A stretch of DNA of 64,000 nt from Syntrophales bacterium (GTDB lineage: Bacteria; Desulfobacterota; Syntrophia; Syntrophales; UBA2185), in the NCBI GenBank assembly GCA_052144335.1, contig JBKQQP010000006.1, positions 21,778 to 85,777 of the forward strand, written 5' to 3'. How positions within the stretch are numbered: the first letter of the stretch is position 1; each line of letters opens with the position of its first letter. Shown here piece by piece: positions 22,810 to 38,875 of the stretch. The position numbers and the translations under genes were made by a program. The notes under the pieces are model-generated. The model did no database searches. It saw nothing but the letters and a program-made list of their open reading frames with translations, and was not told the origin of the DNA.

Positions 22810-22855
22810 TTGGCGCGCCCACCAGGAGTCGAACCTGGGGCCTTTGGATTCGTAG
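22810..22855 (-). repeat. Island-distal att repeat: duplicated 3-prime 45 nt of tRNA-Arg plus 1 nt
   Basis: TTGGCGCGCCCACCAGGAGTCGAACCTGGGGCCTTTGGATTCGTAG is identical over 46 bp to 38651-38696. Confidence 0.9.
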
Positions 22856-23108
22856 ACCCCCAAACTAAAAAAGGCTGAACGTGCCGAAACCCTTGCGCAG
22901 CTTCACTTTGCGCGATATTTAACATAAAAATTAGGGAGCGTCTATCATTAGTTTTATGCAGTTTTTCCGAGTTGAATCTATTAGCGTTAGTGACATAAAA
23001 GTTACAAAATGATATAGTGATTGAGGCCATAGGGCAGATCACCCGAAAAGCCATAACCGCAATGGCCTGGGCCTCATTGATAACGCGGGCTATCGTACGG
23101 GGGTAGTA

Positions 23109-23801
23109 ATGGTCGGGCAAGAGGAAGTATATATAGCGGAAAATGAGGTTTTAAAGTCCGGTATCTTCAGATTAGATCAATATGGCTTCCCTATAGGCAT
23201 CTACAAATTAACAGCAAACAAAGCACTAAGTAAAAGGGACATATTGGATGTGCACGTTCAAGAGTTGCAGAAATTCCTGCACCGCCTGGAGTACTTATAC
23301 TCCTTATACATAACAGAAAAAACAGAAAACCCGGACAGATTGAAGCGTGAGGCCATTAACACTGAACAACGATCATTTCAACAGCGATTGTATGAGTTGA
23401 TTGAAACCTATGCGCTGGACAAATCAGCACTTGAGCCACAATTAAAAAGCTTCCTTAAAAAAATCAATAAGCGGATAGAAGTGGGAATTAAGAAAAACAA
23501 GCGCCTTACTCGAATAATACAAGGCCGTCGAAGAGAATGGCGATACGCCTTCTTGATAACAATGCTGGACCATCAATTACGGAAACTACGATTGAAAGGC
23601 GATAAGGAACTTACGAAAGAAGATCGCTTTTATTATATAAGCCATTTCTTGATCGGGACTAGCATCGAAAAACAAGAAGAGCCGAACGGATATAAAAAGC
23701 TATTTAACCGTTTGTGGCGATACGATTATAGAGATAGCCATAGACGTAAAAATATTGTGACAACCTCTAATATTCCTGCCTTCCGTTCTAATCATCCATA
23801 G
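23109..23801 (+). CDS. Hypothetical protein (island)
   Basis: 230-aa basic, helical ORF with no recognisable motifs. Confidence 0.4.
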   Translation: MVGQEEVYIAENEVLKSGIFRLDQYGFPIGIYKLTANKALSKRDILDVHVQELQKFLHRLEYLYSLYITEKTENPDRLKREAINTEQRSFQQRLYELIETYALDKSALEPQLKSFLKKINKRIEVGIKKNKRLTRIIQGRRREWRYAFLITMLDHQLRKLRLKGDKELTKEDRFYYISHFLIGTSIEKQEEPNGYKKLFNRLWRYDYRDSHRRKNIVTTSNIPAFRSNHP

Positions 23802-23999
23802 TTTATTAAATCTGTCATTATGACATTTCTACTCTCCTTTTTTTGTCTTTTTTAACCCCCTTTTGTCACACTATAATTAAGCAATTACGCATACATACGC
23901 TTTACTTCTTTCTATCTTTATGTTTTACCCTGCCTTAGGTGAATTGATGATCTTCTATGCTTTTAGAGAGAATTTATAAATTTTGTGGAGGTTGAAGAA

Positions 24000-24191
24000 A
24001 TGGAAAACGCAGAGCTTCTAACCATCAGCGAAATGGCAAAGCGTCTTAAAGTGCCCCTGTCCTGGTTATATGCCCGGACGCGAATCAAGGACGTTAATAC
24101 CATCCCCCATGTACGGATTGGGAAGTATATCAGATTCAATGAAGCTGAAGTTATGACCTGGCTTAAGCATAAATACAGTGACGATGTGTGA
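24000..24191 (+). CDS. AlpA/excisionase-family HTH DNA-binding protein
   Basis: LLTISEMAKRLKVPLSWLYARTR....IPHVRIGKYIRFNEAEVMTWL is the typical excisionase-type winged helix. The ATG at 24000 follows a GTGGAGG site. Confidence 0.7.
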   Translation: MENAELLTISEMAKRLKVPLSWLYARTRIKDVNTIPHVRIGKYIRFNEAEVMTWLKHKYSDDV

Positions 24192-24231
24192 ACGAGGGAA
24201 TTCGGGATAGGATTCTTAAGAGGGGTATCTT

Positions 24232-26157
24232 GTGGGTAAATTTCTAAAGCCGATTTTTGCTAACATTCCAGAGGAACTTACAAAGCTAAATCAATGGGTG
24301 CTTTTCCGGGCAGAGATACGTGACGGCAAAGAAACAAAACCATTGCACAAACCGGGCGGGGAATATGCGAAGTCCAATAATTCTTCAACCTGGTCAACCT
24401 TTGATGCTGTTAAAAAGGCTTTAGATCGCTTCGACGGTATAGGCTTTGTGTTGACGAAAGATGATCCTTTTGTTGGTATAGACTTTGACAAGTGTTACTG
24501 CCCCGCCTTTGAGATCATTGATCCGACTGTCAAACAGCATATCAAATCAATCAACACTTACACAGAAATTAGTCCGTCCGGTAAGGGTATCCGGGCATTA
24601 CTCCGGGGCAATCTTCCTGTGGATGGCAGAAAAAACGGTCGTGTAGAGATTTATCAATCTAAGCGGTATGTGACCATTACGGGCCATCGGTTGCCCGGTT
24701 ATCCTGCCACTATCGAAGCGAGACAGGCAGAATTGGAAACCTTCTACAAGACGGCATTTCCTGAGAGATCTGAAGATGCAAAACAGACCCCAGACAATGC
24801 GCGCCAAGTTTCTCAATCTCTCACCTGTGATTGGAAGGGCAGACTACAGGCCGGTTTCGGGTCTAAGAGCGGTGATAAAATTAAAAAGCTGTATGATGGC
24901 GATTGGTCAGATCATCCGTCACAAAGTGAGGGAGACATGGCCCTTTGCGCTCATCTTGCTTATTATCTTTCCGGTGATTTCTTGGCTATCGATCAGGCTT
25001 TCCGGAGATCGGGTCTTTTTCGGTCTAAATGGGATGAAAGACGCGGGGGACAAACCTATGGTCAAATGACCATTGATAAGGCTATCCAGGGGTGCACAGA
25101 ATTTTATCAGGAATCTATTAAATCCCCTGCCCATACACAGAAAAACCCCACCAGACTTCTCACAGAGGAAGACCAGTCACATATCGAGAGCGTGAGGCCG
25201 TATGATCCGCCCAAAATCTATACCTTAGAAGATGCCATTCTGGAATCACGAGACTTTCACAAGATCGAATTACCAGAAAAACAGAGCCTTATTCATCCGA
25301 TCATCCGCGAACAACAAATAATCCTTTTGTCTGGATGGCGCGGCGTAGGCAAGACTTGGGCTGGGCTTGGCATCGCCGATGCTGTCACGCGGGGCGAATC
25401 CTTTGGACCTTGGAAAACCGAAAAAACCGTCCCCTGTTTTTACCTTGACGGAGAGATGGCCGCGCAAGATCCTCGGGAACGTCTCAATTTATTAAATCCT
25501 AACAAGGAACGAAAAGCTTTTTTTTACATTTATTCGGACGCTTATGCAAATATCCTGGGCCTTCCCCGCGCTAATCTCATGTCCGAGAGATGGCGAACGG
25601 AAATGAAACGAATCTTAAGAGCACGCAAGGTCAAGCTCTGGATCATCGACAACATAGCTTCACTCGCCGGGGGGATTGATGAAAATTCAAAGAAGGATTG
25701 GGACCCGATAAACTCGTGGCTATTAGAACTTCGCTTTGCAGGGATTACCTCTATTCTCTTGCATCACGTCAATAAAGAAGGCGGACAGCGAGGAACGTCG
25801 GCGCGAGAGGATAACATTGACAGTTCGATAATCCTTAAACACCCACCCGATTATAAGTCGGAAGATGGCGCGGATTTTATCATGTCACACACAAAGAGCC
25901 GGGTTTCTCATCCAGATCTGTCTTTGATTCAAGACGTGCGTTTCAAATTAAGGCAAACAGAAAGCGGACACCTTGAATGGACCTGGCAATACATCAAAGC
26001 GGAGATCAGGTCTTCCGTACTCGATATGCTGAACGATCGCATCCCTGGAAATGAAATTGCAGACCAGCTCGGTATTTCAAAAGGCTATGTCAGCCGGATA
26101 AAGAAAGGCGCGATTGAGAAGGGCATTATAACCAGGCAAGGAAGGTATAAAGAGTGA
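24232..26157 (+). CDS. Replication protein: AEP primase-polymerase N-terminal domain fused to a RecA-like (RepA/AAA_25-type) ATPase and a C-terminal HTH
   Basis: Prim-Pol motifs VGIDFDKC and EISPSGKGIRALL. Walker A GWRGVGKTW. Walker B LWIIDNIASL. C-terminal NEIADQLGISKGYVSRIKK. Confidence 0.75.
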   Translation: MGKFLKPIFANIPEELTKLNQWVLFRAEIRDGKETKPLHKPGGEYAKSNNSSTWSTFDAVKKALDRFDGIGFVLTKDDPFVGIDFDKCYCPAFEIIDPTVKQHIKSINTYTEISPSGKGIRALLRGNLPVDGRKNGRVEIYQSKRYVTITGHRLPGYPATIEARQAELETFYKTAFPERSEDAKQTPDNARQVSQSLTCDWKGRLQAGFGSKSGDKIKKLYDGDWSDHPSQSEGDMALCAHLAYYLSGDFLAIDQAFRRSGLFRSKWDERRGGQTYGQMTIDKAIQGCTEFYQESIKSPAHTQKNPTRLLTEEDQSHIESVRPYDPPKIYTLEDAILESRDFHKIELPEKQSLIHPIIREQQIILLSGWRGVGKTWAGLGIADAVTRGESFGPWKTEKTVPCFYLDGEMAAQDPRERLNLLNPNKERKAFFYIYSDAYANILGLPRANLMSERWRTEMKRILRARKVKLWIIDNIASLAGGIDENSKKDWDPINSWLLELRFAGITSILLHHVNKEGGQRGTSAREDNIDSSIILKHPPDYKSEDGADFIMSHTKSRVSHPDLSLIQDVRFKLRQTESGHLEWTWQYIKAEIRSSVLDMLNDRIPGNEIADQLGISKGYVSRIKKGAIEKGIITRQGRYKE

Positions 26158-26182
26158 CCGCGAAAAATAGTAGACTTTTGAA

Positions 26183-26332
26183 TAAACTGAGCGGTGAATT
26201 TTTTATATTAAACTGATTAGTAAACCAGAGTAAACTGTCTTTGCAAGTTATGGATATATTAAAGAAAAAAGTTTACACATTAGTAAACCAGACAGTTTAG
26301 TTTACTACTCCCCCCGTCAGGGGAGTAAACTG
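26183..26332 (+). repeat. AGTAAAC / TAAACTG iteron cluster with a hairpin
   Basis: TAAACTG occurs at 26183, 26209, 26231 and 26325, and inverted at 26293. ATTAGTAAACCAGA occurs twice (26216 and 26279). There is a hairpin AGTTTACT(AC)TCCCC-CCGTCA-GGGGAGTAAACT. Confidence 0.6.
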
Positions 26333-26358
26333 TAAAAAGACCGGGTTTAAAACCTCTT

Positions 26359-26559
26359 ATGGCTAAAGAAAAACCACAGATTGCAAAACGCCTTTACACT
26401 TTGAAAGACGCAGCGGCTTATTTAGGAAGGCCCGTCTATGGGGTACGCTCATTGATATGGAGCGGCAAGCTGCCAGTGATCCAAACTGGGCGCAAGCAAT
26501 ATATAGACATACGTGACCTTGAATTTTATGTCGATAGAAGCAAAATAACGATGGTCTGA
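26359..26559 (+). CDS. Second excisionase-family (MerR-like) HTH protein
   Basis: LYTLKDAAAYLGRPVYGVRSLIWSGKLPVIQTGRKQYIDIRDLEFYV matches the excisionase DNA-binding domain pattern. Confidence 0.65.
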   Translation: MAKEKPQIAKRLYTLKDAAAYLGRPVYGVRSLIWSGKLPVIQTGRKQYIDIRDLEFYVDRSKITMV

Positions 26560-26584
26560 TGGAAAAAATTGGAAACGTATAGGC

Positions 26585-27045
26585 GCAACAAATGGCAACC
26601 ATACAGCGACACAAAGCGAAACTATGAATCAAAACGCATCATATAGGTAATGAACCAAAACGAACCACAATGCGGGGCAAAACGGGTCAATATATCTTGA
26701 ATCTGTGAAGGCGAGTCAAATCGAGTCATGAAAACGCAAGGATTAAATGTATTCGCCCTACACACACAGATTGATTGAATTAAAAACACGCGGCGGGACA
26801 AATCGGGACATAGCAGAGGCGAGACGCTTGCATTGCGAATCCATTGTCCCTTCTGTGATCCTTTATTTGCAAGGGTTTCCGAGGTTGTGTAACTGTCTTG
26901 TAACCATATTTTATGTCTTTAATGCTGAAGTGAATGGGGAAAATCAGGATAGAACAAATGACGATAAGCGAATCAAACAGAGTCATAGGCTCGCGATTAT
27001 ATGCCCCGGAGCTTCAAGGATACCCCGGGCGCAACAAATCGCAAC
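26585..27045 (+). repeat. Array of 15-bp units of the form GNNNC-AAAWS-GNNNC
   Basis: Exact units: GCAACAAATGGCAAC (26585), GAACCAAAACGAACC (26652), GAGTCAAATCGAGTC (26713), GGGACAAATCGGGAC (26795) and GCAACAAATCGCAAC (27031). There are several degenerate ones. The core CAAA(A/T)CG is present 6 times. Confidence 0.55.
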
Positions 27046-27109
27046 AAGGAAGCTACCCTGAAATGCCGACTGCTTGGAGGCATTGGTTAAGCTGAAAGAA
27101 AAAGAGCCA

Positions 27110-27149
27110 GGGGGGGAGGGGGGAGAGCGGCAGAGGGGGGGGGTATGGG
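27110..27149 (+). repeat. G-rich tract (G7, G6, G9, G3 runs)
   Basis: GGGGGGGAGGGGGGAGAGCGGCAGAGGGGGGGGGTATGGG lies about 130 bp upstream of the 27276 ORF. Confidence 0.8.
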
Positions 27150-27275
27150 ACCCGCTGAAGCCATTTCCGCTCTACACACAAGGCCCCAAAAAGTAAATTA
27201 ATAATTGGTACAGCGATTAACTTAGTATAGCCTACACGGTGCTTGACCCTCTGGGGCTTTATATTGGGATGAATT

Positions 27276-27593
27276 ATGAAACTTCTAAAATATATTGCAC
27301 CTCAAAAGCTGATCGTAAACGGAGATCCTTCACCTTGCGAGTGTACCGACCTTGTCATTTGTGCTTACTGTGTCCAGGTTAATCTGTTAGGACTTGAAAA
27401 GAAATTCAAGACCGATGAAAGCGCAACAAACAACGTCATAGCCTATATCAGGAGAAACGGTATACGCAAGACAGCAAGAGACCTTGATGTGCAGGATAGC
27501 AACGTAAGGTATTGGTTAAAGACTAAGAACGTCCCCCAATTTGTGATCCAAAAATACGCGGGTGCGCAACTCAATGAGTTACCCTACACGTAG
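27276..27593 (+). CDS. Hypothetical protein (Cys cluster plus HTH-like C-terminus)
   Basis: 105 aa with CECTDLVICAYC, then IRKTARDLDVQDSNVRYWLK. No family assignment. Confidence 0.4.
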   Translation: MKLLKYIAPQKLIVNGDPSPCECTDLVICAYCVQVNLLGLEKKFKTDESATNNVIAYIRRNGIRKTARDLDVQDSNVRYWLKTKNVPQFVIQKYAGAQLNELPYT

Positions 27594-27818
27594 CCTATTT
27601 TTTGCGCACTTGATACATTGAAATCATTGAGGTTTTTTGATCGATTTTTGGGACTTTGAGATATTACCCGAAGCAGATTTTGTGTAGTGCTTTTCCGTTG
27701 ATCTTTGAAATTCAATTCAAGGTGCGATAACAACCAGCCTGAAGTCGGTTGTAAGTGACGAAAGAAAACGAATCCCACTTGGGAAAGGATGGAAACAGAG
27801 TCACCTGGCTAACAACCA

Positions 27819-27930
27819 GGTAGGGCGCCTAACCGAAAGATGGCAATTTTTAGATTATTGCTTAGCACCCACAACTGTTCAGAGGGGGGCAGTTGTCAAG
27901 ATTGAGGATTACGAATGGAAAGTGAGTAAC
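27819..27930 (-). repeat. Cassette-junction repeat, copy A
   Basis: GGTAGGGCGCCTAACCGAAAGATGGCAA ... ACAACTG/CAGTTGT hairpin ... TTGAGGATTACGAATGGAAAGTGAGTAAC. It ends 7 nt from the stop of the 27938 gene. Confidence 0.7.
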
Positions 27931-27937
27931 ATAAAAA

Positions 27938-28540
27938 TCAACCGCGAAGGCACGCTTTAGTTGCCCTAATTTCCCGTTCGAGGAATTCATCTATAGACGG
28001 TTCATCCACGGGAGGCACTTCTTTTTCATCACTCTTTTTTCGCATCTTGCCAAACAATCCCTCAAACTCGCAATATACGGGTTCTTTGTAATCCTCACGA
28101 GCTTTTGCGATTCCTTTTTCAAATATGCACCAATAATATTCGATGTTCCATGATTGCACATCCCACACGACATCTTCGGGGATTGCGTTTATCTTGACGA
28201 ATGTTCCTAGCTCTTCAAAATAATTAGCAATATGCTCACAAGCTCCATCAAATTCTCGCTTCCCCTCTTTCCACCGACTACATACGTCGCAACGGACGCG
28301 TTGCATAATTTCCGAATCCCATCGCTCTTGAATTCTACAAACCGCTTGGACAACGTGAGACATCGCTTCAGTTTCCGTCTGTTTCGTCTGAAGCTTTACC
28401 TGCTTAGCGATGGAGAACACCTGCTTAACAATAAAGATAAGTGTAAGGGCTATAGCAACAAATTGGCAAAACGACCAAAACCATTCTGAGCCTATTCCCC
28501 AGTAGTGTGTTGGCATAACTTGCGTCACCTCATTCGTCAT
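27938..28540 (-). CDS. Hypothetical protein with a single N-terminal TM helix
   Basis: 200 aa. The TM segment WFWSFCQFVAIALTLIFIVKQVF is followed by a Cys/Trp-rich soluble domain. No catalytic motif was recognised. Confidence 0.5.
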   Translation of the reverse strand: MTNEVTQVMPTHYWGIGSEWFWSFCQFVAIALTLIFIVKQVFSIAKQVKLQTKQTETEAMSHVVQAVCRIQERWDSEIMQRVRCDVCSRWKEGKREFDGACEHIANYFEELGTFVKINAIPEDVVWDVQSWNIEYYWCIFEKGIAKAREDYKEPVYCEFEGLFGKMRKKSDEKEVPPVDEPSIDEFLEREIRATKACLRG

Positions 28541-28792
28541 AAAATCCCCACAAGGAATTGTATCACACTGCCTTGTGCTCTAACAGTGTTTATATGGAAC
28601 CGCATAACATCCCAACTCATTTACTGGACTGCTAATATCTTCCATTCCAATAAAGGAGATTTATAGAGATTCATTGATGAACGCTCATGTTCAAACCTTG
28701 GTACGTTACAGATTACTATTTGAAAGTATGGATGTCCGTCAAGATTATGGAAAACTCTCTTACAGGAAGAAGCAAAATATCCGCGCAAGGGG

Positions 28793-28867
28793 TCGTAGGA
28801 AGCCAACCGAAAATGGCACTTTAAAAAAGCTGTTTTCGTCTACAACTTACGAGCATGAATGGGCCGG
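28793..28867 (-). repeat. Cassette-junction repeat, compact copy C
   Basis: CGTAGGAAGCCAACCGAAAATGGCA ... CTACAACTTACGAGCATGAATGG. It abuts the stop codon at 28868. Confidence 0.55.
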
Positions 28868-29281
28868 TTATATTATCTTGAAAAATACAATTGTAATCAT
28901 TACAAGTAGAATTATTGAAAACCAGATTATTTCTCGTGTTTTTTTTTGCAGCTCAAAATTCAAAACGTGCTGTTTTAAAAACAATATCAGTAATTGCTCG
29001 CGAATGTCCTTACTCACAAAATCTCTGATTAGTTCTTCACTTTTAGCAAGATTTTGCATCGGATCACCATGGAGATATGGTAATTTTCCCATATATTCAT
29101 TAGACAATGATTGGATATCATTTTCATCAATATTAATTCTATATAAAAAATCGCTTAAGACAGTGAGTAATTTTCTGTATTCTTCCTTAAAAGATAGCCA
29201 ACTCGGTAAATCAGTGAAATCAGCCTGCTCTTTATCTTCTTTATATTTACCAAGATAGGTATCTTTAAATCTTTTGACCAT
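28868..29281 (-). CDS. Hypothetical protein with a C-terminal TM helix
   Basis: GGGAGG site before the ATG at 29281. 137 aa, acidic and helical, ending in IIWFSIILLVMITIVFFKII. Confidence 0.45.
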   Translation of the reverse strand: MVKRFKDTYLGKYKEDKEQADFTDLPSWLSFKEEYRKLLTVLSDFLYRINIDENDIQSLSNEYMGKLPYLHGDPMQNLAKSEELIRDFVSKDIREQLLILFLKQHVLNFELQKKTREIIWFSIILLVMITIVFFKII

Positions 29282-29519
29282 AGTCCATCCTCCCGTCATT
29301 ACAAAGCACAAAACCCCGCCTCTTTTAAGAAAGAGGGTTTTGGTAAATCAGTTCATGTTACCCTCAAATAAGTGAAGGGGTTTGTAACTCTATGTATGTG
29401 ACCACGATGAATTAATCAAAGCATTTGGACAACGAACTGTTTTATTATACATATTGTTGTCATTAGTCAACAGAATATCCCTCTCGATTCTGTTAAATTT
29501 CCTCCATAAGGAGGTGAAC

Positions 29520-29789
29520 TTGACAATCGAAGAGGCTTTTGGAGAAGTAATAAGAGAACTCAGAAAGGAATATAAAATCTCCCAAGAGAAACTTGCCGAG
29601 ATAAGCAATCTCGACCGGAGCTTCATTTCACTCCTGGAATGTGGTCATAAGCAACCTTCCTTGGTCACTATTTTTCAACTCGCAAAAGCGTTCGATCTTT
29701 CTCCTTCAAAAATCATGTCATTGGTTGAAAAAAAGACGAAGCATAGATGGAACAAGAAGAAAAATATGGAACGACACAAGGAGCGGTAG
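29520..29789 (+). CDS. XRE-family HTH transcriptional regulator
   Basis: AAGGAGG site 5 nt before the TTG at 29520. FGEVIRELRKEYKISQEKLAEISNLDRSFISLLECGHKQPSLVTIFQLAKAF is a classic Cro/C1 HTH. It is divergent from the 28868 gene. Confidence 0.75.
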   Translation: MTIEEAFGEVIRELRKEYKISQEKLAEISNLDRSFISLLECGHKQPSLVTIFQLAKAFDLSPSKIMSLVEKKTKHRWNKKKNMERHKER

Positions 29790-29893
29790 GGAGCCTAACC
29801 GAAAGATGGCAAATTACAGTTGTCGAGCACACCTACAACTAAATGTTTTTGAAAATTTGAGATGTTGAGAATTACGGATTGAAAGAGTGTAAC
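29785..29893 (-). repeat. Cassette-junction repeat, copy B
   Basis: GGTAGGGAGCCTAACCGAAAGATGGCAA (27/28 identical to copy A) ... CAGTTGT/ACAACT hairpin ... TTGAGAATTACGGATTGAAAGAGTGTAAC. It ends 1 nt from the methyltransferase stop. Confidence 0.7.
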
Positions 29894-29894
29894 G

Positions 29895-31463
29895 TCACGC
29901 TTGACCGGCGCGAGCCCGCCCGGGGCGAAGCGTACGTGTGCAGGCGATTGTTCGATATTCTTGTCTAGGCTCCATCAGTAGCGACAGCTGAAGCTCCGTC
30001 GCGTCGCCCGCTGACTGAGAATGAACAAAATATTTTAGTTCATCTAGCTTGCCAAGGCTACGAGCAAGCTCCACAAAAGAAATTCTGCGAAGCACATCGA
30101 TGGTGATTGGACGTTTTGAATCTGCAAAAACCAGCGACTTCAAGAACGCCTTTGCTTCTACCGAGGACAGCAGCTCAAAAAGAAGATCGGCCTCTTTCTT
30201 GGACTGACATGGGATGGAGTAGCAAGTGTCGTCGACCATGACCGGGCGCTTATCGCAAGGCGGAACTACCACGAAGGACATATTCTTGTAGAGCCCTGAA
30301 ATGGCGACCTTCCAAGGGGCAAACGAATAGGGACCGATTCCAAATACAGAGAATCTAGGACGGTCCCTGTAAATAGAACTCTTTCTTCCGTCCAAAATGT
30401 CTTTATGGCGCATTAAGTATTCCCAGGTTTTCGGGGCTCTCTGTTCTATCTCCGTAGTATCGTCGCCAGTGTGTCTCTGTGTAACCAATACAGCCCTCCG
30501 AATAACGATTCGCCCATTGCCGAGGTCGGAAGACTTCAAAAGAGGAAAGACATAGTCCTCCTCAATTTTGACTGCTTCACCAAATCCGTTGATCAGTATC
30601 TGGCCATTACGAGTTAATTCCATAACCTTGGCAGCATCGTGCTTAACGCCCGACCGCCAAGTATATGTCGTTGATCCGCCATCCAGTCTCTTATGCGCCT
30701 GGTAAACATCGATGTCACAAACCAAATCCCCAGCAACGAATCCGAATCGCGTAGACGCGGATGCTGTATCGAGATCAGAGTAAACCATCGCAACTCGTTC
30801 ATCTGTGCGCTTGCCTGTGGCGAAGAAGAGACAAGCATCGACAGCTACATTGAAATCCGCCTTGGCATCAATGTGAAACAATCTTGAACCCTCGCGCCCT
30901 CCGTCGGTCTTCCAGAAATGTCGCAAGACCTTTCTTGCCGTCATAGTCTTGCACAGCATGGCGATAGCTCCGTTTGATGGAATAGCTTCAATCAATTGGA
31001 TCAACATCCATTCCGCGATATCGAAATTCGATTTACCAGTACGAGCGTCGAAACCGCGCAGTCCCTGAAAGTTCGATTTATGGGGGAGATTCTTGCTTCC
31101 AAGTTGACCCAAGTCGGAGTTTGTCACCCATGGTGGATTACCTATAACGAGAATCCGGTTCTTCGAGGACTGTGCTACATTGCACCTCCAATCCTCGTTG
31201 AAGAAATCTCGGTGGAGAATCTGCACTCCGAACTGCCTCAAGCTTTTGCGAGCGAGATCAACGTATGCCTTGTTGATTTCGTAGCCTATATAGTCCGAGT
31301 TTTCTCCCCAACGTTCTGCCGAAGCTTTGAGGAAAGCCCCCAGCCCGACAGTGGGTTCGATCACGATTTCCGGAGTCCCGAAAAGTTCATTCACGAGCGA
31401 TACAACCCTCGTGGCCAAGCTTTCTGGGGTTTGGAAGTCTCCGTATTCCTTCTTAGGGCTCAT
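29895..31463 (-). CDS. N6-adenine DNA methyltransferase (gamma class, Eco57I/TaqI-like)
   Basis: Motif I VIEPTVGLGAF, motif IV IGNPPW and a large C-terminal target-recognition region. Confidence 0.8.
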   Translation of the reverse strand: MSPKKEYGDFQTPESLATRVVSLVNELFGTPEIVIEPTVGLGAFLKASAERWGENSDYIGYEINKAYVDLARKSLRQFGVQILHRDFFNEDWRCNVAQSSKNRILVIGNPPWVTNSDLGQLGSKNLPHKSNFQGLRGFDARTGKSNFDIAEWMLIQLIEAIPSNGAIAMLCKTMTARKVLRHFWKTDGGREGSRLFHIDAKADFNVAVDACLFFATGKRTDERVAMVYSDLDTASASTRFGFVAGDLVCDIDVYQAHKRLDGGSTTYTWRSGVKHDAAKVMELTRNGQILINGFGEAVKIEEDYVFPLLKSSDLGNGRIVIRRAVLVTQRHTGDDTTEIEQRAPKTWEYLMRHKDILDGRKSSIYRDRPRFSVFGIGPYSFAPWKVAISGLYKNMSFVVVPPCDKRPVMVDDTCYSIPCQSKKEADLLFELLSSVEAKAFLKSLVFADSKRPITIDVLRRISFVELARSLGKLDELKYFVHSQSAGDATELQLSLLMEPRQEYRTIACTRTLRPGRARAGQA

Positions 31464-31484
31464 AGGAATTTAAGTCCTGCATCA

Positions 31485-31979
31485 TCACCAATCTATACTA
31501 TCTGGATTTTTTATGAATCTTTTGGAAAAGCGTTCATGTTTTTTGTGCTCTTTCTTTCTGTATGTCTCGTATGCCGACAGAAATCCCTTATAAAATTCTC
31601 GTTTTGTCTGATCTCTGATAATCTTCAAAGGACCAATTTTCTGAATTACACCGTAGCCCTGAGCTTCTATTGACAAACAGTCCCAGCTGATTTGTTCAAT
31701 CGGAATCAGATCGGATTCATCCAATATTTTCAAGTCATCTCCCTCTTCCTCATAATCTACAAATATGAAGCTTAGTTCATTTCGATCCTCGAAGACCCAT
31801 TTATGCATCTTCTTAATAGAAATCATGTTGGGTGAGTAATTCTGTTTAGCGACGTTGTTGCTCTTCACGTTTACAGCATGATTATCAGCCAGCATAAAAT
31901 CGCCGACTGCTTTTCTGGTCGTTGTGCTTTTCCCATATTTGTCTGCCATCAAAATTTCGATTCTACTGTATGCATCCAT
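31485..31979 (-). CDS. Putative type II restriction endonuclease (assigned by position)
   Basis: 164-aa ORF 22 bp upstream of the methyltransferase on the same strand. It has a possible PD-(D/E)xK-like GDFML...AVNVKS. No confident family match. Confidence 0.4.
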   Translation of the reverse strand: MDAYSRIEILMADKYGKSTTTRKAVGDFMLADNHAVNVKSNNVAKQNYSPNMISIKKMHKWVFEDRNELSFIFVDYEEEGDDLKILDESDLIPIEQISWDCLSIEAQGYGVIQKIGPLKIIRDQTKREFYKGFLSAYETYRKKEHKKHERFSKRFIKNPDSIDW

Positions 31980-32416
31980 AGTCAGTTATTCCAGGTGTCT
32001 TGCTGTTTATCGAACAATTAATATACGAACTTCGCTTTTCCGATGATTTGGATATCACTTTAACACAGATCATTTACATTCAAAAGAAATATATGACATA
32101 ATTACAAGAGAGTACTTATTCACATCATTTCGGATATTATGGTAATAAAGACTAAAAAAGAACTTCGTGAAACGTGGGAAATTTGTCCAATACTAAAGTC
32201 TTGGGATCGTCGCTGATGTGATCATTACGCATAGAATTCTTGTATCCATGCAACATAGGACAGCCTATTAATTTCAGGAAGGAGTGTGTGTTTTTCTTTT
32301 AGACTAACCAAGTCCGGTTGATTAGCGGGTTAGGAATCGATTTCCATTGGGGCAGCATATGCAACTTCGAATTTGAAGCATGTTATTTCTTGGTGGGTAC
32401 TGGATTAAAGTCGTTC

Positions 32417-33133
32417 CTAAGCAATTGATAGCTTTATTGGCAGACTCTTTGGGTCATATATCTTTTGCTTGCCCCATATTGAGTCTAGATAGCTTTCGTC
32501 TGCAATGGCAATAGAAACCAATTTGAATAGGCTTGCAACTTTCGAGATAAGTTCTGACTCATCGACTGGTAGAGCTGAACCGTTGTTTGACAGAGTCGCT
32601 ATCCTTGTAATAAAAACCACAATAATTGTCGGCGTGTTCTTTAGTTCAAATGCATTGAATGTAACCAACCCCTCAGGTAACTTGAACATCATGTGATCTG
32701 CAAAGCTAAACCCATTGCTGCCATACTTTTCGCGAATGTCCTCTAGGGTAGTCTTTCCGAACGCTACGCCCTCAATGCCAGATTCTGTACTTGACTCTTT
32801 GTAATTCCAATCTACTTCGGCATATAAGATTCTGTCGTCTTTGCTGTCGTAGGTTACTGATATCTCATTTCCATTTTCGCACTGCCATTTCGTAATTTTC
32901 ATCGTACCAAAACCGTTGCGAGCTAGAGGCTTCAGGTTTAGCTTCTGCGCTGATTGGATACTTGTCCCAATCCTGATGCCGTTTAAGGCCTTATCCATGA
33001 CCTGCCAGTCTGTATTGCGCGCCGAGTTCAGTTTTGCAGCGACAACCTGCCATATGAATGCAATTATTGCAATGGCTGCACTTAATATTCCGGCTATCCA
33101 CGACCACTTTTCTAACGATGCAGGTATTTCCAT
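32417..33133 (-). CDS. Membrane-anchored hypothetical protein
   Basis: 238 aa. The N-terminal TM helix WSWIAGILSAAIAIIAFIWQVVAA is followed by a mixed alpha/beta domain without recognisable motifs. Confidence 0.45.
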   Translation of the reverse strand: MEIPASLEKWSWIAGILSAAIAIIAFIWQVVAAKLNSARNTDWQVMDKALNGIRIGTSIQSAQKLNLKPLARNGFGTMKITKWQCENGNEISVTYDSKDDRILYAEVDWNYKESSTESGIEGVAFGKTTLEDIREKYGSNGFSFADHMMFKLPEGLVTFNAFELKNTPTIIVVFITRIATLSNNGSALPVDESELISKVASLFKLVSIAIADESYLDSIWGKQKIYDPKSLPIKLSIA

Positions 33134-33212
33134 TTTGGCACTAATTTAACCAACGGCAGCTAAACTGAGGGGGCAGACGTTAGGAACTGGTCTCTCTGTG
33201 ATTTGTTGCAGC

Positions 33213-33977
33213 TCATTTAGTTATCACTTCTTTAAAAATGGCTCCCATCTCTTCGGAAGCACGAATTAATATCGGGGTAAGCCATGTAATACACGCTGAT
33301 GTGTAGCGTTCTTCTATTTCGCTGTGAATACCTCTACCTCGTTCCTGTTCGCCCATCCTATAAAAGCTCATCGGAAGTGTGTGAACATGAACAGACAAAA
33401 ACCCATACATCATTCTATATTCAGCTTCTTCCAAACCAATCCGTCGGACGATCTCGTCTTTGGGCATAACATACGCTTCCTTTCCCTTAAAGTAACGCTT
33501 CTGTTGTTTCTCATCGAGGGAAGAGAAAAACGCATTAGATGTTAGTCTAGTCCTTAACTCATCAGCCTCCACATCAAATTTTTTAAGATACTCTTCATCT
33601 TCTCCCATGGTCTCAAAGATTTTCTTTCGGGAGATACAATCGTGGAGGTTGAACAGATTCCATCTACAATCCCATTCATCGTGTGGAACATTTTCGACGC
33701 AAAGATAATAAAACGCCATATAAGACTCAAATATACTTCTAGTTAGAGTTGCTACCGAAGCATAATCCCAGTGATCAAAGAAGTGTTTTGACCATCTACT
33801 ATTTGGTAGTAGCATTAATAAACTGAAAGAGGATGTGCATATTCGTGTAAAAATCACTGATGCAAAAAAATGCATTCCTGTCGGCGAAGGAATTCCTTCA
33901 CATTTCTTGGAAACACCAGCACAACGAATAACAGCAGCATCAAATTTACCTAATTCATCTGAATAACTCATCAGCAA
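33213..33977 (-). CDS. Hypothetical all-helical protein with an R-x6-H motif (possible HEPN/DUF5677-like)
   Basis: 254 aa with RWNLFNLH at residues 105-112. The assignment is weak and motif-level only. Confidence 0.4.
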   Translation of the reverse strand: MLMSYSDELGKFDAAVIRCAGVSKKCEGIPSPTGMHFFASVIFTRICTSSFSLLMLLPNSRWSKHFFDHWDYASVATLTRSIFESYMAFYYLCVENVPHDEWDCRWNLFNLHDCISRKKIFETMGEDEEYLKKFDVEADELRTRLTSNAFFSSLDEKQQKRYFKGKEAYVMPKDEIVRRIGLEEAEYRMMYGFLSVHVHTLPMSFYRMGEQERGRGIHSEIEERYTSACITWLTPILIRASEEMGAIFKEVITK

Positions 33978-34004
33978 TTTTTCTTAACTGAGTACACAAG
34001 GGGT

Positions 34005-34112
34005 GGTAGGGTCCCCAACAAACAGGAAGGTGGCTTTTAAAAGTTATTGTCAGTAGGCTCAAACTCACCTGGCACGAATGCAGGCAGCACTCCATTGCAG
34101 TGTCCTGTTCGA
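34005..34112 (-). repeat. Cassette-junction repeat, diverged copy D
   Basis: GGTAGGGTCCCCAACAAACAGGAAGGTGGC aligns with the 5-prime box of copies A and B. The distal part (GGCACGAATGCAGG) is only loosely similar. It abuts the stop at 34113. Confidence 0.4.
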
Positions 34113-35366
34113 TTACATTTCTTCCAGGCGTTTGATTGCATCGTCAACCTCGCCGACATGAGACGCGATTGTGACTCGTCCTCGAAGAGAATTTAGTAGT
34201 TCGAGGCCTCTTGCCTTCGGTTTCGTTTGGTGAAGTTCATCTCGAACTCGTGCATTATTCCTGAACATGGAAGCTACGGTCCGAATCTGATCGGTGTTGA
34301 GTCGGTCTATGAACGCTTGTAAGTGCTCATGGGCTCCGGACCGCCCCCAATAGTTCCCGCACCGTACGGCAAGAATCTCTTGATAGACCTCCTCGAAGCA
34401 TATGGATGGTACACTTGGACCTAATTGTTCGAGCGTTGTGGCAGCGGTGACTTCGGAAGCCCACCCGTAGGAAGAGTCTTTCGCCTTAGCTAGTTGTTTT
34501 GCGGCGTGTCTATAAATCGCCGCACGAGCGGCATCTGGGATGTACTGAATGCCATTGACTTGGATAAGAAAATCCAGAAGACGGACTCGGCCACCTTTGT
34601 CTGAACTCTCGTCAGCATCTGGGTTTATGCTGAGTTGATGATACTTGATTCCAGCGGTCTTTCTGAGGTCTTCCGTCGCCCGCTCCCATACCAAAGGGAA
34701 GAGGTTCTTTGTATTCTGGAGCGCCGGTTCGTTGCCCATGCAGAGCATGTCCAACATAAATCCGAAGCAGATCCGCAAATCCTGCTGACGAAGACCTCGC
34801 ACTTGATCTCTGAGTAAGTCCTGTTGTTCCTTTGACAGTTTGGCTGTCTTGACCGGATCAAACAAGGAGGACACCGAGTGTCCTGGGTCAGGCAGGGGGG
34901 CCTCAAAGAGGTTCTTTTGCAGCAGCAGGACAAGGCCTAGAACATCCTCTCTCTCAACCTTGGAGTCAGTTCCATGCGCAGGAGAAGCATGGTTCCTCAT
35001 CCAGTTGATCATCTCCAGTGCCTTTCCTGCTTTTCTTTTCAGCAATCCCAAACTGGTGGCACCAGAAATCAACGTAAGATCGTCAACATCTTGCCACCGC
35101 TCATTCAGTGTATCGCCTGACAGATCGTATCGTTTTCGGCCGGGCTCATCTTTGACTACGGACAGAAACAAGTCAACGCCGTAGGCTTCGACTCTTCGCC
35201 GAAGGTTGTGTATCGACGCATTCCAAATATCGAGCAGTGCGTGGTCATAGAACGTTGCATCGAAAAGCTTGCGGGCTTGTTGTAGGAGCCCAGTTTCCTG
35301 ACTTACGAGTACGGGAAACATTTCTTTAGAAGGTGTTACAAGGATCGCTGGAAGTGTCTCTGTCAT
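34113..35366 (-). CDS. Hypothetical protein with an N-terminal Abi_C/HEPN-like region
   Basis: 417 aa with ...ALLDIWNASIHNLRRRVE... and LEMINWMRNHASPAHG (R124-x6-H131). This resembles the conserved RN....AHG of Abi_C/DUF4145-type HEPN domains. The C-terminal 250 aa are unassigned. Confidence 0.45.
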   Translation of the reverse strand: MTETLPAILVTPSKEMFPVLVSQETGLLQQARKLFDATFYDHALLDIWNASIHNLRRRVEAYGVDLFLSVVKDEPGRKRYDLSGDTLNERWQDVDDLTLISGATSLGLLKRKAGKALEMINWMRNHASPAHGTDSKVEREDVLGLVLLLQKNLFEAPLPDPGHSVSSLFDPVKTAKLSKEQQDLLRDQVRGLRQQDLRICFGFMLDMLCMGNEPALQNTKNLFPLVWERATEDLRKTAGIKYHQLSINPDADESSDKGGRVRLLDFLIQVNGIQYIPDAARAAIYRHAAKQLAKAKDSSYGWASEVTAATTLEQLGPSVPSICFEEVYQEILAVRCGNYWGRSGAHEHLQAFIDRLNTDQIRTVASMFRNNARVRDELHQTKPKARGLELLNSLRGRVTIASHVGEVDDAIKRLEEM

Positions 35367-35415
35367 ATTGCGATAGCTCCCGTTTTTGTTGGTATGGCAT
35401 ATCAGGTTAACGGCT

Positions 35416-37098
35416 TTATTTTAATGGTTTTATCTTCCACACCTCAATAGCCAATTGAGCCAAATAATTTTGCTGCTCCTCAATTGCGTTTTTGTTCCAC
35501 TCCTTAAATTTGGCAGCTTTTTGCGTAATCAAGAGGTCGGATTTTTCAAATATCTCGCGCTTTGTAATAAAAGAACTACTCCGGATTTTAGAGTTCATTT
35601 TCTGCTTCAATAAAATCATATTACCTAATCGCTTTGTATATGCTTTTCTTTCATCTTCATTGAACTGTGTCCAAGCACCTGAAGCTGGTCGTTCTGGTAA
35701 AATGTGTTCTAAAGTAACTTCAGCGGGGTCGGGGTTGGGTATTAGCTCAGGCTGTGGCTTAGCCATTGCCTGAAGTTCAAGCGCACGTAGATAGTATCTG
35801 CTGAGATTCGCCTTAGCTACACGAGCAGTCGCGAAACTGTCTCGAAATATTGCATCGTTCGGTATAAAGGACTCAGCGCGGGTTGCAATGGCTTCAATGC
35901 TTTTCAATTCCCCAGTTCTAATAGATTTCCCTAATTCACAATAATTGTTTTCCATTGCTCCACCACCAAGACCACCTACAATAAGAAGACGAACATTCCA
36001 ACTGATTAGAAGCCTTAGAATTTCCTCTATATCTTCCAATTTCCAATATGCCAGCACTGATAACAGCATAGGGCGGTACTGTTCGAGTCCCAAAAAAGCA
36101 AGCGTTCGAATGCGTTCACGCGTTATAAGAGAGGCTTCTGACCAAAACTCATGCTCAGGGGATAGTATTGCTGCATAAAGATAACTATTCTTATCCACCT
36201 CATTTGCAAAATCCATAACATTTGTGGAAGTTGTAACGCGAGACTTTATACTGCGATAGAGTTCCTTCTCTCTGACTAATCCATACTTAGAACTCCAGAA
36301 GTGCCTAAGAAAAACCGTAAAGAGATTTTCCCCTCCATACGCTTTTAAAGAAGCCATTGCGGTAGTCCAAAGAATTAGAACTGCTTGAAGGTCATCACCA
36401 GCACGACCTAATAAATAATTCTTCAAGAGATCAGCAATCGAAAGATCAAGACCACTGTCATTCATGGTTTCAAATATCAGGAATGCGTTTGCATCATCAG
36501 CAACTACAAAAAAGATTACATAAGTGGATTCACTCAGATACTTGGTTAGTTCCGCCAGCCAATTAACCGGATCTTTCATGCCATCCAGTTTATTGGAGAG
36601 CCACTTGGATATAGATTGACGTGCATTCCAAAGGCGCCTGTGCGATTCAGGAGCTCCACCCTCCGGCTCATCAGATCCTCCTATCAAAATAGATCGGAAA
36701 TACGGATCGTCAGTTTGGTTTAGCTTAAGTTGCGGTCGCTCCACGCCCTCTGTGATGTCGAATGTTGAAAGGTATTGGCTGCGTATGGCTTGGGCTCGTT
36801 TTTTATCTCTATCTTCGAACTGATCCGCAATCCCTGCAAGCAATAAGGATATGACTGCGAGGCGTTGTTGGCCGTCCAAAACTTTGGGGCGTTCACCATC
36901 CGGAACCGAAATCATTACCAGACTACCCAAGAAGTAATCTTCCTTATTTCTGCTAAAGGCATCGCCAATGTCGTCTATCAATTCTATGACCTCTTCAGTC
37001 CACTCGAACGATCTCTGGTGTACAGGAACCTCTAATCTTGTTGTGCTTAATACTGCTGCTATCCCCTTTATTTCGATTGAGGTGTTTGATTTTGCCAT
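35416..37098 (-). CDS. GmrSD-like DUF262/DUF1524 protein (type IV modification-dependent restriction family)
   Basis: N-terminal VPVHQRSFEWT and VLDGQQRL (DUF262/ParB-like). C-terminal TLEHILPE...RLGNMILLKQKMNS (DUF1524 His-Me finger). Confidence 0.8.
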   Translation of the reverse strand: MAKSNTSIEIKGIAAVLSTTRLEVPVHQRSFEWTEEVIELIDDIGDAFSRNKEDYFLGSLVMISVPDGERPKVLDGQQRLAVISLLLAGIADQFEDRDKKRAQAIRSQYLSTFDITEGVERPQLKLNQTDDPYFRSILIGGSDEPEGGAPESHRRLWNARQSISKWLSNKLDGMKDPVNWLAELTKYLSESTYVIFFVVADDANAFLIFETMNDSGLDLSIADLLKNYLLGRAGDDLQAVLILWTTAMASLKAYGGENLFTVFLRHFWSSKYGLVREKELYRSIKSRVTTSTNVMDFANEVDKNSYLYAAILSPEHEFWSEASLITRERIRTLAFLGLEQYRPMLLSVLAYWKLEDIEEILRLLISWNVRLLIVGGLGGGAMENNYCELGKSIRTGELKSIEAIATRAESFIPNDAIFRDSFATARVAKANLSRYYLRALELQAMAKPQPELIPNPDPAEVTLEHILPERPASGAWTQFNEDERKAYTKRLGNMILLKQKMNSKIRSSSFITKREIFEKSDLLITQKAAKFKEWNKNAIEEQQNYLAQLAIEVWKIKPLK

Positions 37099-37170
37099 TT
37101 CTCAACTCCCGTCGTGAATAATCAAAGTAGTAATGCCATAATCAAACATGGCAGCCCTCTCAGATAAGGG

Positions 37171-37326
37171 TTATTTCTTGGGGGGCTTTTCGTACTTTTT
37201 TAAAAGGTCTTGGATGGCTTCTTCTATAAGCATATTGATGGGCTTCTCAGAATGCACGCCTATCAATTTAAGACTCTTTAAAAGGTCTTTATCGATTCGA
37301 GTTGCAAACATTTTCTTTTCTTTCAT
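37171..37326 (-). CDS. Small ribbon-helix-helix (CopG/Arc-like) protein, absent from the ORF track (<60 aa)
   Basis: Own translation: MKEKKMFATRIDKDLLKSLKLIGVHSEKPINMLIEEAIQDLLKKYEKPPKK*. It shows the beta-strand then two helices pattern of RHH regulators. It lies 72 bp upstream of the GmrSD-like gene on the same strand. Confidence 0.45.
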   Translation of the reverse strand: MKEKKMFATRIDKDLLKSLKLIGVHSEKPINMLIEEAIQDLLKKYEKPPKK

Positions 37327-37543
37327 GGGCTTCTTATAACACAAATGAACAGTTTGACAAATAGAATTAGAATATGTTAGATATCAAACATGCTAACATT
37401 TGAATCTCCAAAACCATAGACACATGAAAATTAAACAAAAAAATGAGCCTGAAGATACCTCATGCGGCGACGTATGGGGCGGTTAGCCTATGACCGGGAG
37501 ACATCTTCAGGTTTTATTTTACAAGAAAGTGAGGGATTAAAAA

Positions 37544-38875
37544 ATGGGGATGATATACAAGAGAAACAAAACGTACTGGATCAAGTATTATCGCAACGGA
37601 AAGCCTTACTATGAAACTGCCAGGAGCGATAAAGAAAATGACGCTAAACGTCTTTTGAAGAAGCGAGAGGGGGAGATCTCAGACGGGAAGCTGCCGGGGA
37701 TCTACTTTGACAAGGTTACTTATGACGAACTGGCAGCGGAGCTGATAACTGATTACGAATTGAACGGACGAAAGTCCCTCACGCGCGTCAAGGTTAGCAT
37801 CATGCACCTGGATCAGGAATTTAAGGGCATGAAGGTTGTCAATATCGATACGCAAAGGATCAAAAGATATATAGACAAGAGGTTAACTGAAGGTGCGACA
37901 AACGGAACAATAAACAGGGAGCTTTCGGCACTCATAAGGATGTTTTCAATAGGCACTCAATCCACTCCCCCGAAAGTTCACACTCCCCCGTTTATTGCAA
38001 AGCTGAAAGAGGCCGTGCCGCGTAAGGGCTTTGTTGAGTGGGGGGATTTTATAGCTTTGCGCGATAACCTTCCCGACTACCTGAAAGGGCTTTGCACTTT
38101 CGGCTATCGTACAGGATGGAGAGTATCTGAGATAACAAATTTAAAATGGTCTGAAGTTGACCTCAATCAAAACATAGTGACATTGAATCCAGGTGAAACA
38201 AAGAATGACGAAGGCCGCGTTGTCTATCTTGATAGTGAGTTAAAGGATATTCTTGTAAAACAATGGGAAGCAAGAAAGAAAAATGCAAGGTTACTCCCCT
38301 ATGTTTTCCTGAATGAAGAAAAGACGGATCGAATTAAGAGTTTTTATAAAGCGTGGCATACAGCGTGTAAGAAAGCCAAAATAGGCCGCCGCTTATTCCA
38401 CGATCTGAGGAGATCGGCGATTAGGAACCTTGTCAGATCAGGAGTCCCGGAAGGTGTTGCCATGCGGATAAGCGGACATAAGACAAGATCAGTTTTTGAC
38501 CGATACAACATCGTAAGCGACGCTGACTTAATGCTTGCAGCGCAAAGGCAAGAAGTCTATTTGAAGGCGCAAAAGGTTACAAAAACGGTTACAATCGAGG
38601 ATTTTCAGGATATTAAGGAAGCAACAGGGGGAGATAACCTATCGGATTCATTGGCGCGCCCACCAGGAGTCGAACCTGGGGCCTTTGGATTCGTAGTCCA
38701 ACGCTCTATCCAGCTGAGCTATGGGCGCTCCATAAAAGTATGGCGGTGCAGGAAGTCTAGGAGTAGTTTGTCTCACCATTTCCCTGCTAACAGGGAAATT
38801 TACAGGGTACTTGACCTAAACATCGCCTCAAATCTGATCATAACTTCCGTTCTACTTTGCACCACCGTAGGGTAA
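37544..38875 (+). CDS. int: Tyrosine-type site-specific integrase
   Basis: YRTGWRVSE (Arg I), HDLRRSAIRN (HxxR), GHKTRSVFDRYNI (His/Tyr). The ORF has no stop before the att repeat and reads antisense through tRNA-Arg to 38875, so the functional C-terminus is uncertain. Confidence 0.85.
   Translation: MGMIYKRNKTYWIKYYRNGKPYYETARSDKENDAKRLLKKREGEISDGKLPGIYFDKVTYDELAAELITDYELNGRKSLTRVKVSIMHLDQEFKGMKVVNIDTQRIKRYIDKRLTEGATNGTINRELSALIRMFSIGTQSTPPKVHTPPFIAKLKEAVPRKGFVEWGDFIALRDNLPDYLKGLCTFGYRTGWRVSEITNLKWSEVDLNQNIVTLNPGETKNDEGRVVYLDSELKDILVKQWEARKKNARLLPYVFLNEEKTDRIKSFYKAWHTACKKAKIGRRLFHDLRRSAIRNLVRSGVPEGVAMRISGHKTRSVFDRYNIVSDADLMLAAQRQEVYLKAQKVTKTVTIEDFQDIKEATGGDNLSDSLARPPGVEPGAFGFVVQRSIQLSYGRSIKVWRCRKSRSSLSHHFPANREIYRVLDLNIASNLIITSVLLCTTVG
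38651..38696 (-). repeat. tRNA-proximal att repeat
   Basis: 46 bp identical to 22810-22855. It covers the tRNA 3-prime end through the anticodon. Confidence 0.9.
38652..38728 (-). tRNA. tRNA-Arg (anticodon ACG), CCA encoded
   Basis: GCGCCCATAGCTCAGCTGGATAGAGCGTTGGACTACGAATCCAAAGGCCCCAGGTTCGACTCCTGGTGGGCGCGCCA folds as a cloverleaf. It has a 7-bp acceptor stem, GCTC/GAGC D stem, TTGGA/TCCAA anticodon stem with loop CTACGAA, and CCAGG/CCTGG T stem. Confidence 0.9.

Follow-up and report, generated by a model that had tools for sequence, protein, structure and literature searches.

A 64,000-nucleotide stretch of the genome of a Syntrophales bacterium (GenBank assembly GCA_052144335.1, contig JBKQQP010000006.1, positions 21,778 to 85,777), here called the window, carries an integrative island at a tRNA-Arg gene, and in the cargo bay of this island five consecutive genes lie on the minus strand. 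These encode a 51-amino-acid (aa) ribbon–helix–helix (RHH) protein (37171–37326), a 560-aa GmrSD-family protein (35416–37098), a 417-aa protein (34113–35366), a DUF5677 protein (33213–33971, 252 aa from an ATG, or 33213–33977, 254 aa from a TTG) and a 238-aa membrane protein (32417–33133). All five open reading frames (ORFs) are present in a six-frame ORF list of the window at the coordinates given in the initial annotation, with the RHH gene read from the ATG at 37326 inside a longer ORF that starts at a TTG (37171–37344). That annotation had proposed that the block is one undescribed multi-gene defence system; here we describe why it is better understood as a set of separate genes, and which of these may merit attention as a defence gene in its own right.

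The gaps of 72, 49 and 79 nt between the genes are as originally described. The fourth, given as 135 nt between the 417-aa and DUF5677 genes, depends on the start codon: homologues of the 254-aa protein begin two codons later, at ATG 33971, so the real product is probably of 252 aa and the gap 141 nt. The gene call of the source assembly itself apparently yields a 168-aa DUF5677 product (P0122, 100% identity over 66% of the ORF); because homologues align across the full 252 aa, this call looks too short, with a wrong start.

A single new multi-component system, made up of all five genes or of the three downstream ones, would couple DNA sensing by GmrSD to a HEPN ribonuclease (RNase) and to membrane effectors. 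What speaks for it, and against separate genes, is that the five are co-directional with short gaps (49–141 nt), that they lie in an island beside a restriction–modification (R-M) pair and that a terminator scan found no convincing intergenic terminator in the block, every minus-strand terminator-like match falling inside a gene. Order and spacing are, however, in themselves no more than chance would give, because most of the island cargo lies on that strand, and promoter-like sites occur in the block at the frequency expected from shuffled sequence. Co-transcription of the five genes in this strain is possible; it would be an accident of insertion and not evidence of functional coupling.

The stronger evidence comes from relatives of these genes, sampled from about 70 related loci overall (25 genomes, 4 viral contigs, 2 plasmids and 8 further contigs for the 417-aa gene; about 22 loci for DUF5677; 9 contigs for the 238-aa gene). 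When ten island proteins were searched by tblastn against the 25 genome loci of the 417-aa gene, with 10 kb on each side, none of the other block genes was found. All-against-all clustering of 272 neighbouring ORFs at the 417-aa loci gave no neighbour common to more than three loci, and no homologue of another window gene lay near the 417-aa relatives in the viral contigs, plasmids and further contigs sampled. The partner genes were likewise not present near the DUF5677 relatives, eight viral-contig copies among them, or near the 238-aa relatives, and two plasmid GmrSD homologues had none of these neighbours. One apparent link, a weak tblastn match to the C terminus of the 417-aa protein (E = 0.001) lying 3 kb from a DUF5677 gene (L074), was not reproduced by a hidden Markov model (HMM) of the superfamily and was dropped. 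The 417-aa, DUF5677 and 238-aa genes thus each travel without the others, an outcome that the initial annotation had itself named as refuting its proposal, and no pair of the five genes stands side by side in any related locus sampled.

The borders of homology tell the same story. A relative with 96% identity to the 417-aa protein (P0001) follows a pP_pnuc_1 gene after 38 nt, and its DNA (L047) is 93% identical to the window only over 34057–35371, a span that begins 5 nt ahead of the start codon and ends 56 nt past the stop codon; DNA homology to the DUF5677 gene (L026–L029; 83% identity) is confined to 33198–33999. The G+C content at third codon positions (GC3) of the four adjacent genes is 38/52/34/46%. 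Because the genes do not co-occur, homology ends at gene borders and GC3 is heterogeneous, we propose, with a probability of roughly 0.7, that single-gene cassettes, each acquired independently, make up the block as a mosaic within the island's cargo bay at tRNA-Arg, and that they do not form a coupled multi-gene system. A single multi-component system is by comparison very improbable: the same absence of co-occurrence, border breaks and GC3 heterogeneity count against it, the relevant GmrSD type, HEC-06, works alone, and the DUF5677 protein shows no HEPN signal. The fallback offered in the initial annotation, which treats the downstream genes as further units of their own, comes nearer the truth than its headline. 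There is, then, no new multi-component mechanism here and the five-gene unit is not real; the locus illustrates a general trap, in that tightly spaced, co-directional island genes can be unrelated cassettes.

The assignment of the 35416–37098 product to the GmrSD family holds firmly. GmrSD_N (PF03235, E = 4.1e-27, residues 21–230) and GmrSD_C (PF07510, E = 3.1e-23, residues 413–548) are both matched, so that an N-terminal DUF262 (GmrS) and a C-terminal, HNH-type DUF1524 (GmrD) stand in one polypeptide. The PADLOC model of HEC-06 (PDLC04157) is matched end to end at E = 4.7e-162, residues 4–556 of 560 aligning with model positions 5–557 of 558. A HEC-06 representative protects as a single gene, as the initial annotation had presumed of GmrSD homologues in general, and its defence is lost on mutation of Q79/R80 in the DGQQR motif (NTP hydrolysis) or of E471/H472 in the EHICP motif (nuclease) (Payne et al., bioRxiv 10.1101/2024.01.29.577857). 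The window protein carries DGQQR at residue 75 and EHILP at residue 464, which correspond to these motifs and preserve the EHxxP form of the HNH-type site. From its sequence, the gene can be assigned to the HEC-06-type GmrSD-like type IV restriction enzymes, relatives of GmrSD, BrxU and SspE, as a new member of a known single-gene defence; it appears to differ from HEC-06 in nothing material, apart from its location, which is a tRNA island and not the interior of an Hma system.

The RHH call is also borne out. RHH_3 is matched at 23.5 bits against a cut-off of 21.6, Antitox_RHH at E = 2.8e-5 and the Arc-like repressor family phrog_3180 at E = 9.5e-13. The gene is divergent from that of the integrase, about 217 nt away. 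No RHH gene lies upstream of the two plasmid GmrSD homologues, and a search of the RHH protein against plasmids gave no match. Most likely, it belongs to the island's own regulation or integration module and is not a partner of GmrSD.

The second gene from the downstream end was originally read, like the 417-aa gene, as encoding a HEPN-like protein. It encodes a member of DUF5677 (PF18928; E = 1.4e-17, 64.7 bits against a gathering cut-off of 27.1), a Pfam family without known function or structure, and all 33 aligned homologues match the same family; the literature that mentions DUF5677 gives no function. The motif RWNLFNLH is present as reported, with R105 and H112 in 254-aa numbering. Published HEPN motifs take the form Rx4–6H with a polar residue (N, D or H) after the arginine (Anantharaman et al. 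2013, PMC3710099); here the arginine is followed by tryptophan, R105 and H112 lie in the middle of a helix (residues 99–123) in an AlphaFold2 (AF2) model with a predicted local distance difference test (pLDDT) score of 90.2, and no HEPN-clan Pfam family is matched in the 33 members. Alignment of DUF5677 with DUF4145 by hhalign gave E = 0.32 away from the motif, which is noise. A Foldseek search of the model against the PDB returned no match at E < 0.1, only G-protein-coupled receptor and helical-bundle noise (E ≥ 0.17), and no PDB match was found by sequence, a profile search with the family alignment (A4) giving nothing below E = 0.3. The HEPN reading of this protein is not supported.

The conservation of the DUF5677 protein is of another kind. 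Across the 33 homologues R105, D113, R117, S195, P202, S204, Y206 and G214 are invariant, and H69-W70-D71, H112 (at least 90%) and H199 nearly so; because of this pattern of conserved polar residues the protein looks like a probable enzyme. Many members from Pseudomonas and Rhizobiales (P0155, P0157, P0159, P0166, P0169, P0176 and P0200) are about 395 aa long, with a conserved C-terminal extension of about 140 aa (…FDPxFW…NGxPAT…AFxVD…FKT) that the window protein does not have.

The surroundings of DUF5677 relatives vary. The closest (76% identity) is accompanied by MobA/TraI, ArdC and a distant DUF5677 paralogue, as part of a conjugative element. At L026 7122–7904 and L027 4009–4791, this paralogue stands directly upstream of the closest relative and is preceded by a gene with a faint AbiGi match, so that the loci hold tandem DUF5677-like genes in a conjugative-element setting. 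A 237-aa gene upstream of DUF5677 in L027 was considered as a homologue of the 238-aa membrane protein and rejected, being the distant DUF5677 paralogue (HMM E = 5e-7). Genes of 382 aa (L040) and 448 aa (L026/L028) downstream of DUF5677 were likewise set aside, as they are unrelated to each other and to the 417-aa protein. Other relatives are solitary, flanked in one setting by radical-SAM and purL genes and in another by DHDPS and hydantoinase genes, and further ones adjoin an IS200-type transposase and ParE/Phd genes.

The 238-aa protein has the single N-terminal transmembrane helix ascribed to it (best Kyte–Doolittle 19-mer 2.39, residues 13–31), followed by an unassigned domain of about 200 aa. 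Its family is a rare orphan one, with just 15 homologues, none carrying a Pfam domain. Their neighbours differ from context to context (integrase/HNH, PLDc_2/NYN, RES, Exo_endo_phos). Judged by hydropathy, the protein is probably membrane-anchored island cargo, and both it and the DUF5677 protein would be further solo cargo.

The 417-aa protein belongs to a widespread, highly conserved and horizontally mobile family. It has no match in Pfam, NCBIfam or PADLOC; it matches phrog_27609, a family of unknown function (E = 1.7e-112), for which no mention was found in the literature. A word-indexed search returned 441 relatives, nearly all of 416–419 aa, all annotated as hypothetical and 57–96% identical. 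A genome scan at 43–68% identity places the family in Beta- and Gammaproteobacteria, Acidobacteriota, Anaerolineae, Bacteroidota, Campylobacterales, Cloacimonetes, Lentisphaerae, Spirochaetes, Clostridia and three lineages of the candidate phyla radiation (CPR); more than ten phyla are spanned, with members 50–96% identical. An exhaustive profile search yielded 412 representatives at 50% clustering, including a large group of 430–495-aa proteins with full-length matches of about 20% identity, and these distant relatives have no Pfam domain over the homologous region and match no PADLOC model. A tblastn search against GenBank phages gave no match, yet the family has a PHROG and occurs on four IMG/VR contigs. 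In Aliamphritea spongicola (AP025283.1; L025 10001–11251) the gene is split into three ORF fragments and so is a pseudogene; evidently it can be dispensed with, and in some hosts it decays.

Two regions of the 417-aa protein are under constraint. The AF2 model (mean pLDDT 86.5) is all helical and in two parts: an N-terminal, HEPN-like domain (residues ~1–160) carrying R124-N125-x5-H131, and then a C-terminal all-helical domain. The motif RNHASPAH begins at residue 124, as first read, and in the model it lies at the end of helix 111–126 and in the loop before helix 139–154. It is invariant as R-N-x5-H in 20 close homologues, within the longest invariant run of the close family (K-x-LEMINWMRNHASP-x-H, 17 residues). 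Across 77 diverse superfamily members, the consensus is MRNHxSAAHPN, with R in 64, N in 66 and H in 65 of the 77. In the same set W48, W227 and E305 are invariant without exception, and N338, G341, N218 and P320 are near-invariant; because such residues persist superfamily-wide, the C-terminal domain too is strongly constrained.

Whether the N-terminal domain is HEPN was asked in several ways. R124-N125-HASPA-H131 agrees with the published motif definition (PMC3710099). In a lax Pfam scan of the 77 members, the commonest families were Abi_C (4/77) and DUF4145 (2/77; best E = 0.0072), both of the HEPN clan, and nearly all other families were matched once. With a DUF4145 reference built as a nine-sequence alignment of annotated plasmid genes, hhalign aligned the superfamily to DUF4145 at E = 0.0066, placing the motif helix and the next helix onto the IR..GND.AH helix, whereas two comparisons run as controls reached only E = 0.28 and 0.32 and did not align at the motifs. 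Several results weigh against a HEPN domain. The hhalign probability for the DUF4145 alignment is just 5.7%, the Abi_C match in the window protein reaches only E = 0.13 (residues 111–137) and about 15% of superfamily members do not have the R-N-x5-H motif. Foldseek searches of the full-length model against the PDB and BFVD gave generic HEAT/ARM/TPR-like solenoid matches (E ≥ 0.04), with no HEPN among the 50 matches listed, and PDB sequence profile searches returned nothing below E = 0.3. The initial suggestion of an Abi_C/DUF4145-type HEPN domain thus stands as far as a weak but consistent similarity that falls on the motif, and falls short of statistical security; we regard the assignment as weakly supported and not secure.

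The same data bear on the alternative that the 417-aa protein has a non-HEPN fold and serves as an enzyme or scaffold, with the C-terminal domain (invariant W227, E305, N338 and G341) as its functional core and an R..H resemblance that is convergent. Across the superfamily it is W48, W227 and E305 that are invariant, rather than R124 or H131; the motif-less members retain the C-terminal residues; and Foldseek yields no HEPN structure. Against this alternative, the recurring database similarity, to HEPN-clan families, falls on the motif helix, and the 17-residue motif stretch is the longest invariant run in the close family. We consider it improbable.

Comparison with stand-alone abortive-infection (Abi) genes of the HEPN class (DUF4145/Abi_C; also AbiD/F, AbiJ and AbiU2; PMC3710099) reveals shared and distinct features. 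Like these, the 417-aa gene is single-gene mobile cargo, with relatives beside R-M operons and on prophages and plasmids, and its product has an Rx6H motif with N after R, an (S)AH(P) core in common with DUF4145 (R..GND.AH) and, as far as can be predicted, a helical domain of catalytic type fused to a second domain. Unlike them, it matches no HEPN-clan Pfam model significantly, the motif is spaced RN-x5-H where DUF4145 has R-x2-GN-x3-H, the HEPN-like part is N-terminal and precedes a conserved helical domain (about 250 aa) without PDB, Pfam or BFVD relatives, and conservation of the family across phyla is far higher than in typical Abi genes. Most plausibly, the family would be an unannotated variation on the stand-alone HEPN/Abi theme, set apart by a new second domain.

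The genomic contexts of the 417-aa family are varied. In the Lentisphaerae bacterium WC36 (CP085689.1, L016 2849–11242), the homologue lies on the same strand as an operon ordered hsdM-hsdS-prrC-hsdR, 44 nt beyond its hsdR. A Wolfebacteria metagenome-assembled genome (MAG) has the gene between a type IIG R-M gene and a mad8-like gene, and a Bacteroidales MAG has it adjoining a PDC-M37B/DolB-like gene. In another lineage, it follows recB/recD in an island with TIR, Sel1, RhuM, HigBA and HsdR genes. On Cyanobium and related contigs (L075–L078 7001–8254), it stands on the opposite strand between a phage portal gene (DUF4055) and sigma70_r2/terminase genes, an arrangement identical in several samples that suggests a prophage moron; phage-borne defence genes typically occupy such positions. 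Small plasmids of Clostridium and Acinetobacter carry distant relatives beside serine recombinases and toxin–antitoxin genes. Among the 118 neighbours that 24 loci contribute are type I and IIG R-M, Tmn, PrrC, PDC-S01, PDC-S13, Schlafen/AlbA_2 and integrase genes. The distribution of the family is patchy, mobile and frequently defence-adjacent.

On small plasmids (L038, L039, L054 and L058), a distant 417-aa relative, a DUF4145 gene and a GmrSD homologue were each seen to adjoin a small serine recombinase gene, which abuts directly in L054 and L058. Serine recombinases were recently proposed as markers of defence cargo (PMC12632615), and these plasmids fit.

The WC36 locus invites comparison with PrrC and RloC, the anticodon nucleases found at type I R-M loci. 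As with these, the 417-aa-family gene of WC36 is embedded in or appended to R-M; unlike them, its product has no ATPase domain and no sequence similarity to PrrC, and the R-M association holds in just a minority of the loci. WC36 offers a ready natural setting in which to ask whether the family serves as a back-up to R-M in the manner of PrrC.

Taken together, these features are consistent with the 417-aa protein being a stand-alone effector of the abortive-infection type, with an N-terminal RNA-cleaving, HEPN-like site (R124, N125 and H131) and a C-terminal domain that senses infection or restrains the nuclease. We place this tentative proposal a little short of even odds. In such a scheme, R124, N125 and H131 of the N-terminal domain would form a metal-independent RNase active site; the conserved C-terminal helical domain would sense an infection cue, or hold the RNase off until one appears; and cleavage of host or phage RNA would then halt phage growth. 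A bolder form, in which the family as a whole is a very widespread single-gene immune effector that joins a divergent HEPN-type RNase to a previously unseen helical sensor domain, is in our view doubtful. If true, it would mean that 50–60% identity from Burkholderia to CPR bacteria and cyanobacterial prophages reflects recognition of a universal phage or host feature, and that the family is a defence system missed by current catalogues.

Against a defence role stand the many pooled 417-aa neighbours that are housekeeping genes (EF-Tu, ABC transporters and metabolic enzymes) and the identity of 50–60% across phyla, which is unusually conservative for a defence gene. The one DUF5677 ORF found to have been assayed so far, selected on account of its enrichment beside serine recombinases, did not number among the five that showed antiphage activity in Enterococcus faecalis (PMC12632615). 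These observations favour the alternative in which the 417-aa, DUF5677 and 238-aa genes have no role in phage defence and are selfish or accessory cargo, for example an addiction toxin, an anti-defence factor or one for competition between mobile genetic elements, or a regulator; on this reading R-N-x5-H would have a role other than RNA cleavage, for instance in binding a ligand or nucleotide, as it does in HEPN domains that are not catalytic. The solitary placement of DUF5677 between metabolic genes, the prophage-borne copies and PHROG of the 417-aa family, which may serve the phage, and the want of a PADLOC model for it point the same way. The recurrence of the 417-aa gene beside or inside R-M and other defence loci, the near-invariance of a motif of catalytic type, which argues for an enzyme, and the moron position in prophages count on the other side, and on balance we find non-defence cargo unlikely.

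The 417-aa gene, read as a solo effector, is a fair candidate for a new single-gene phage defence, and a concrete one: a bare cassette of 1.25 kb that moves among islands, prophages and R-M loci in more than ten phyla, has no name in any annotation resource and offers R124, N125 and H131 as putative catalytic residues. Should it protect against phage, a common single-gene system would be added to the defence catalogues, together with an unusually conserved HEPN-like scaffold for studying how such RNases stay silent.

The island that holds these genes is real, as the initial annotation had recognized: a tRNA, an integrase and flanking direct repeats were all found. The tRNA-Arg(ACG) gene (38652–38728, minus strand; tRNA scan) is adjoined by a tyrosine integrase gene (37544–38875, plus strand; PF00589, E = 1e-21), and a 49-nt direct repeat (repeat family D4, 98% identity) occurs at 22810–22858 and 38651–38699. 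The right-hand copy of this attachment (att) repeat is the 3' part of the tRNA gene, so that a repeat of the tRNA 3' part stands at the far end, as in tRNA-targeting islands. Because the 49-nt repeats delimit it, the island measures about 15.8 kb (22810–38699). No stop codon ends the integrase ORF ahead of the tRNA-Arg gene, which it crosses in antisense; the Pfam integrase domain ends near residue 329 of 443, and the last ~110 codons overlap the att/tRNA region.

Two further statements about the setting of the block hold in part. The AT-richness claimed for it is seen at the level of the island, with a GC content of 43.2% against 47.8% and 48.7% in the flanks, but not in the 417-aa gene, which has 50.6% GC. 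In the adjoining R-M pair, the methyltransferase is firm (PADLOC MTase_II, E = 1.3e-153), whereas the identification of the 164-aa product as an endonuclease depends on a HincII match at E = 0.06.

Elsewhere in the island, 24232–26157 (plus strand) encodes a 641-aa primase-polymerase/helicase (NrS1-1_pol-like_HBD, AAA_25 and a C-terminal helix–turn–helix), by its predicted domains a replication module of the kind found in satellite-like or self-replicating integrative elements. A 31-nt direct repeat (94% identity) at 27819–27849 and 29785–29815 brackets a DUF4760 gene (27938–28540), a 147-aa orphan gene (28868–29311, 30% GC) and an HTH_3 gene (29454–29789), and may be the scar of a further cassette inserted within the island. 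Outside the block, coding tandem repeats occur in the window at 10614–10856 and 7701–7808: one has a 15-nt period with ten overlapping 48-nt copies and suggests a pentapeptide-repeat protein, and the other is a GC-rich array of 15/21-nt period that encodes a Gly/Ala/Pro-rich sequence.

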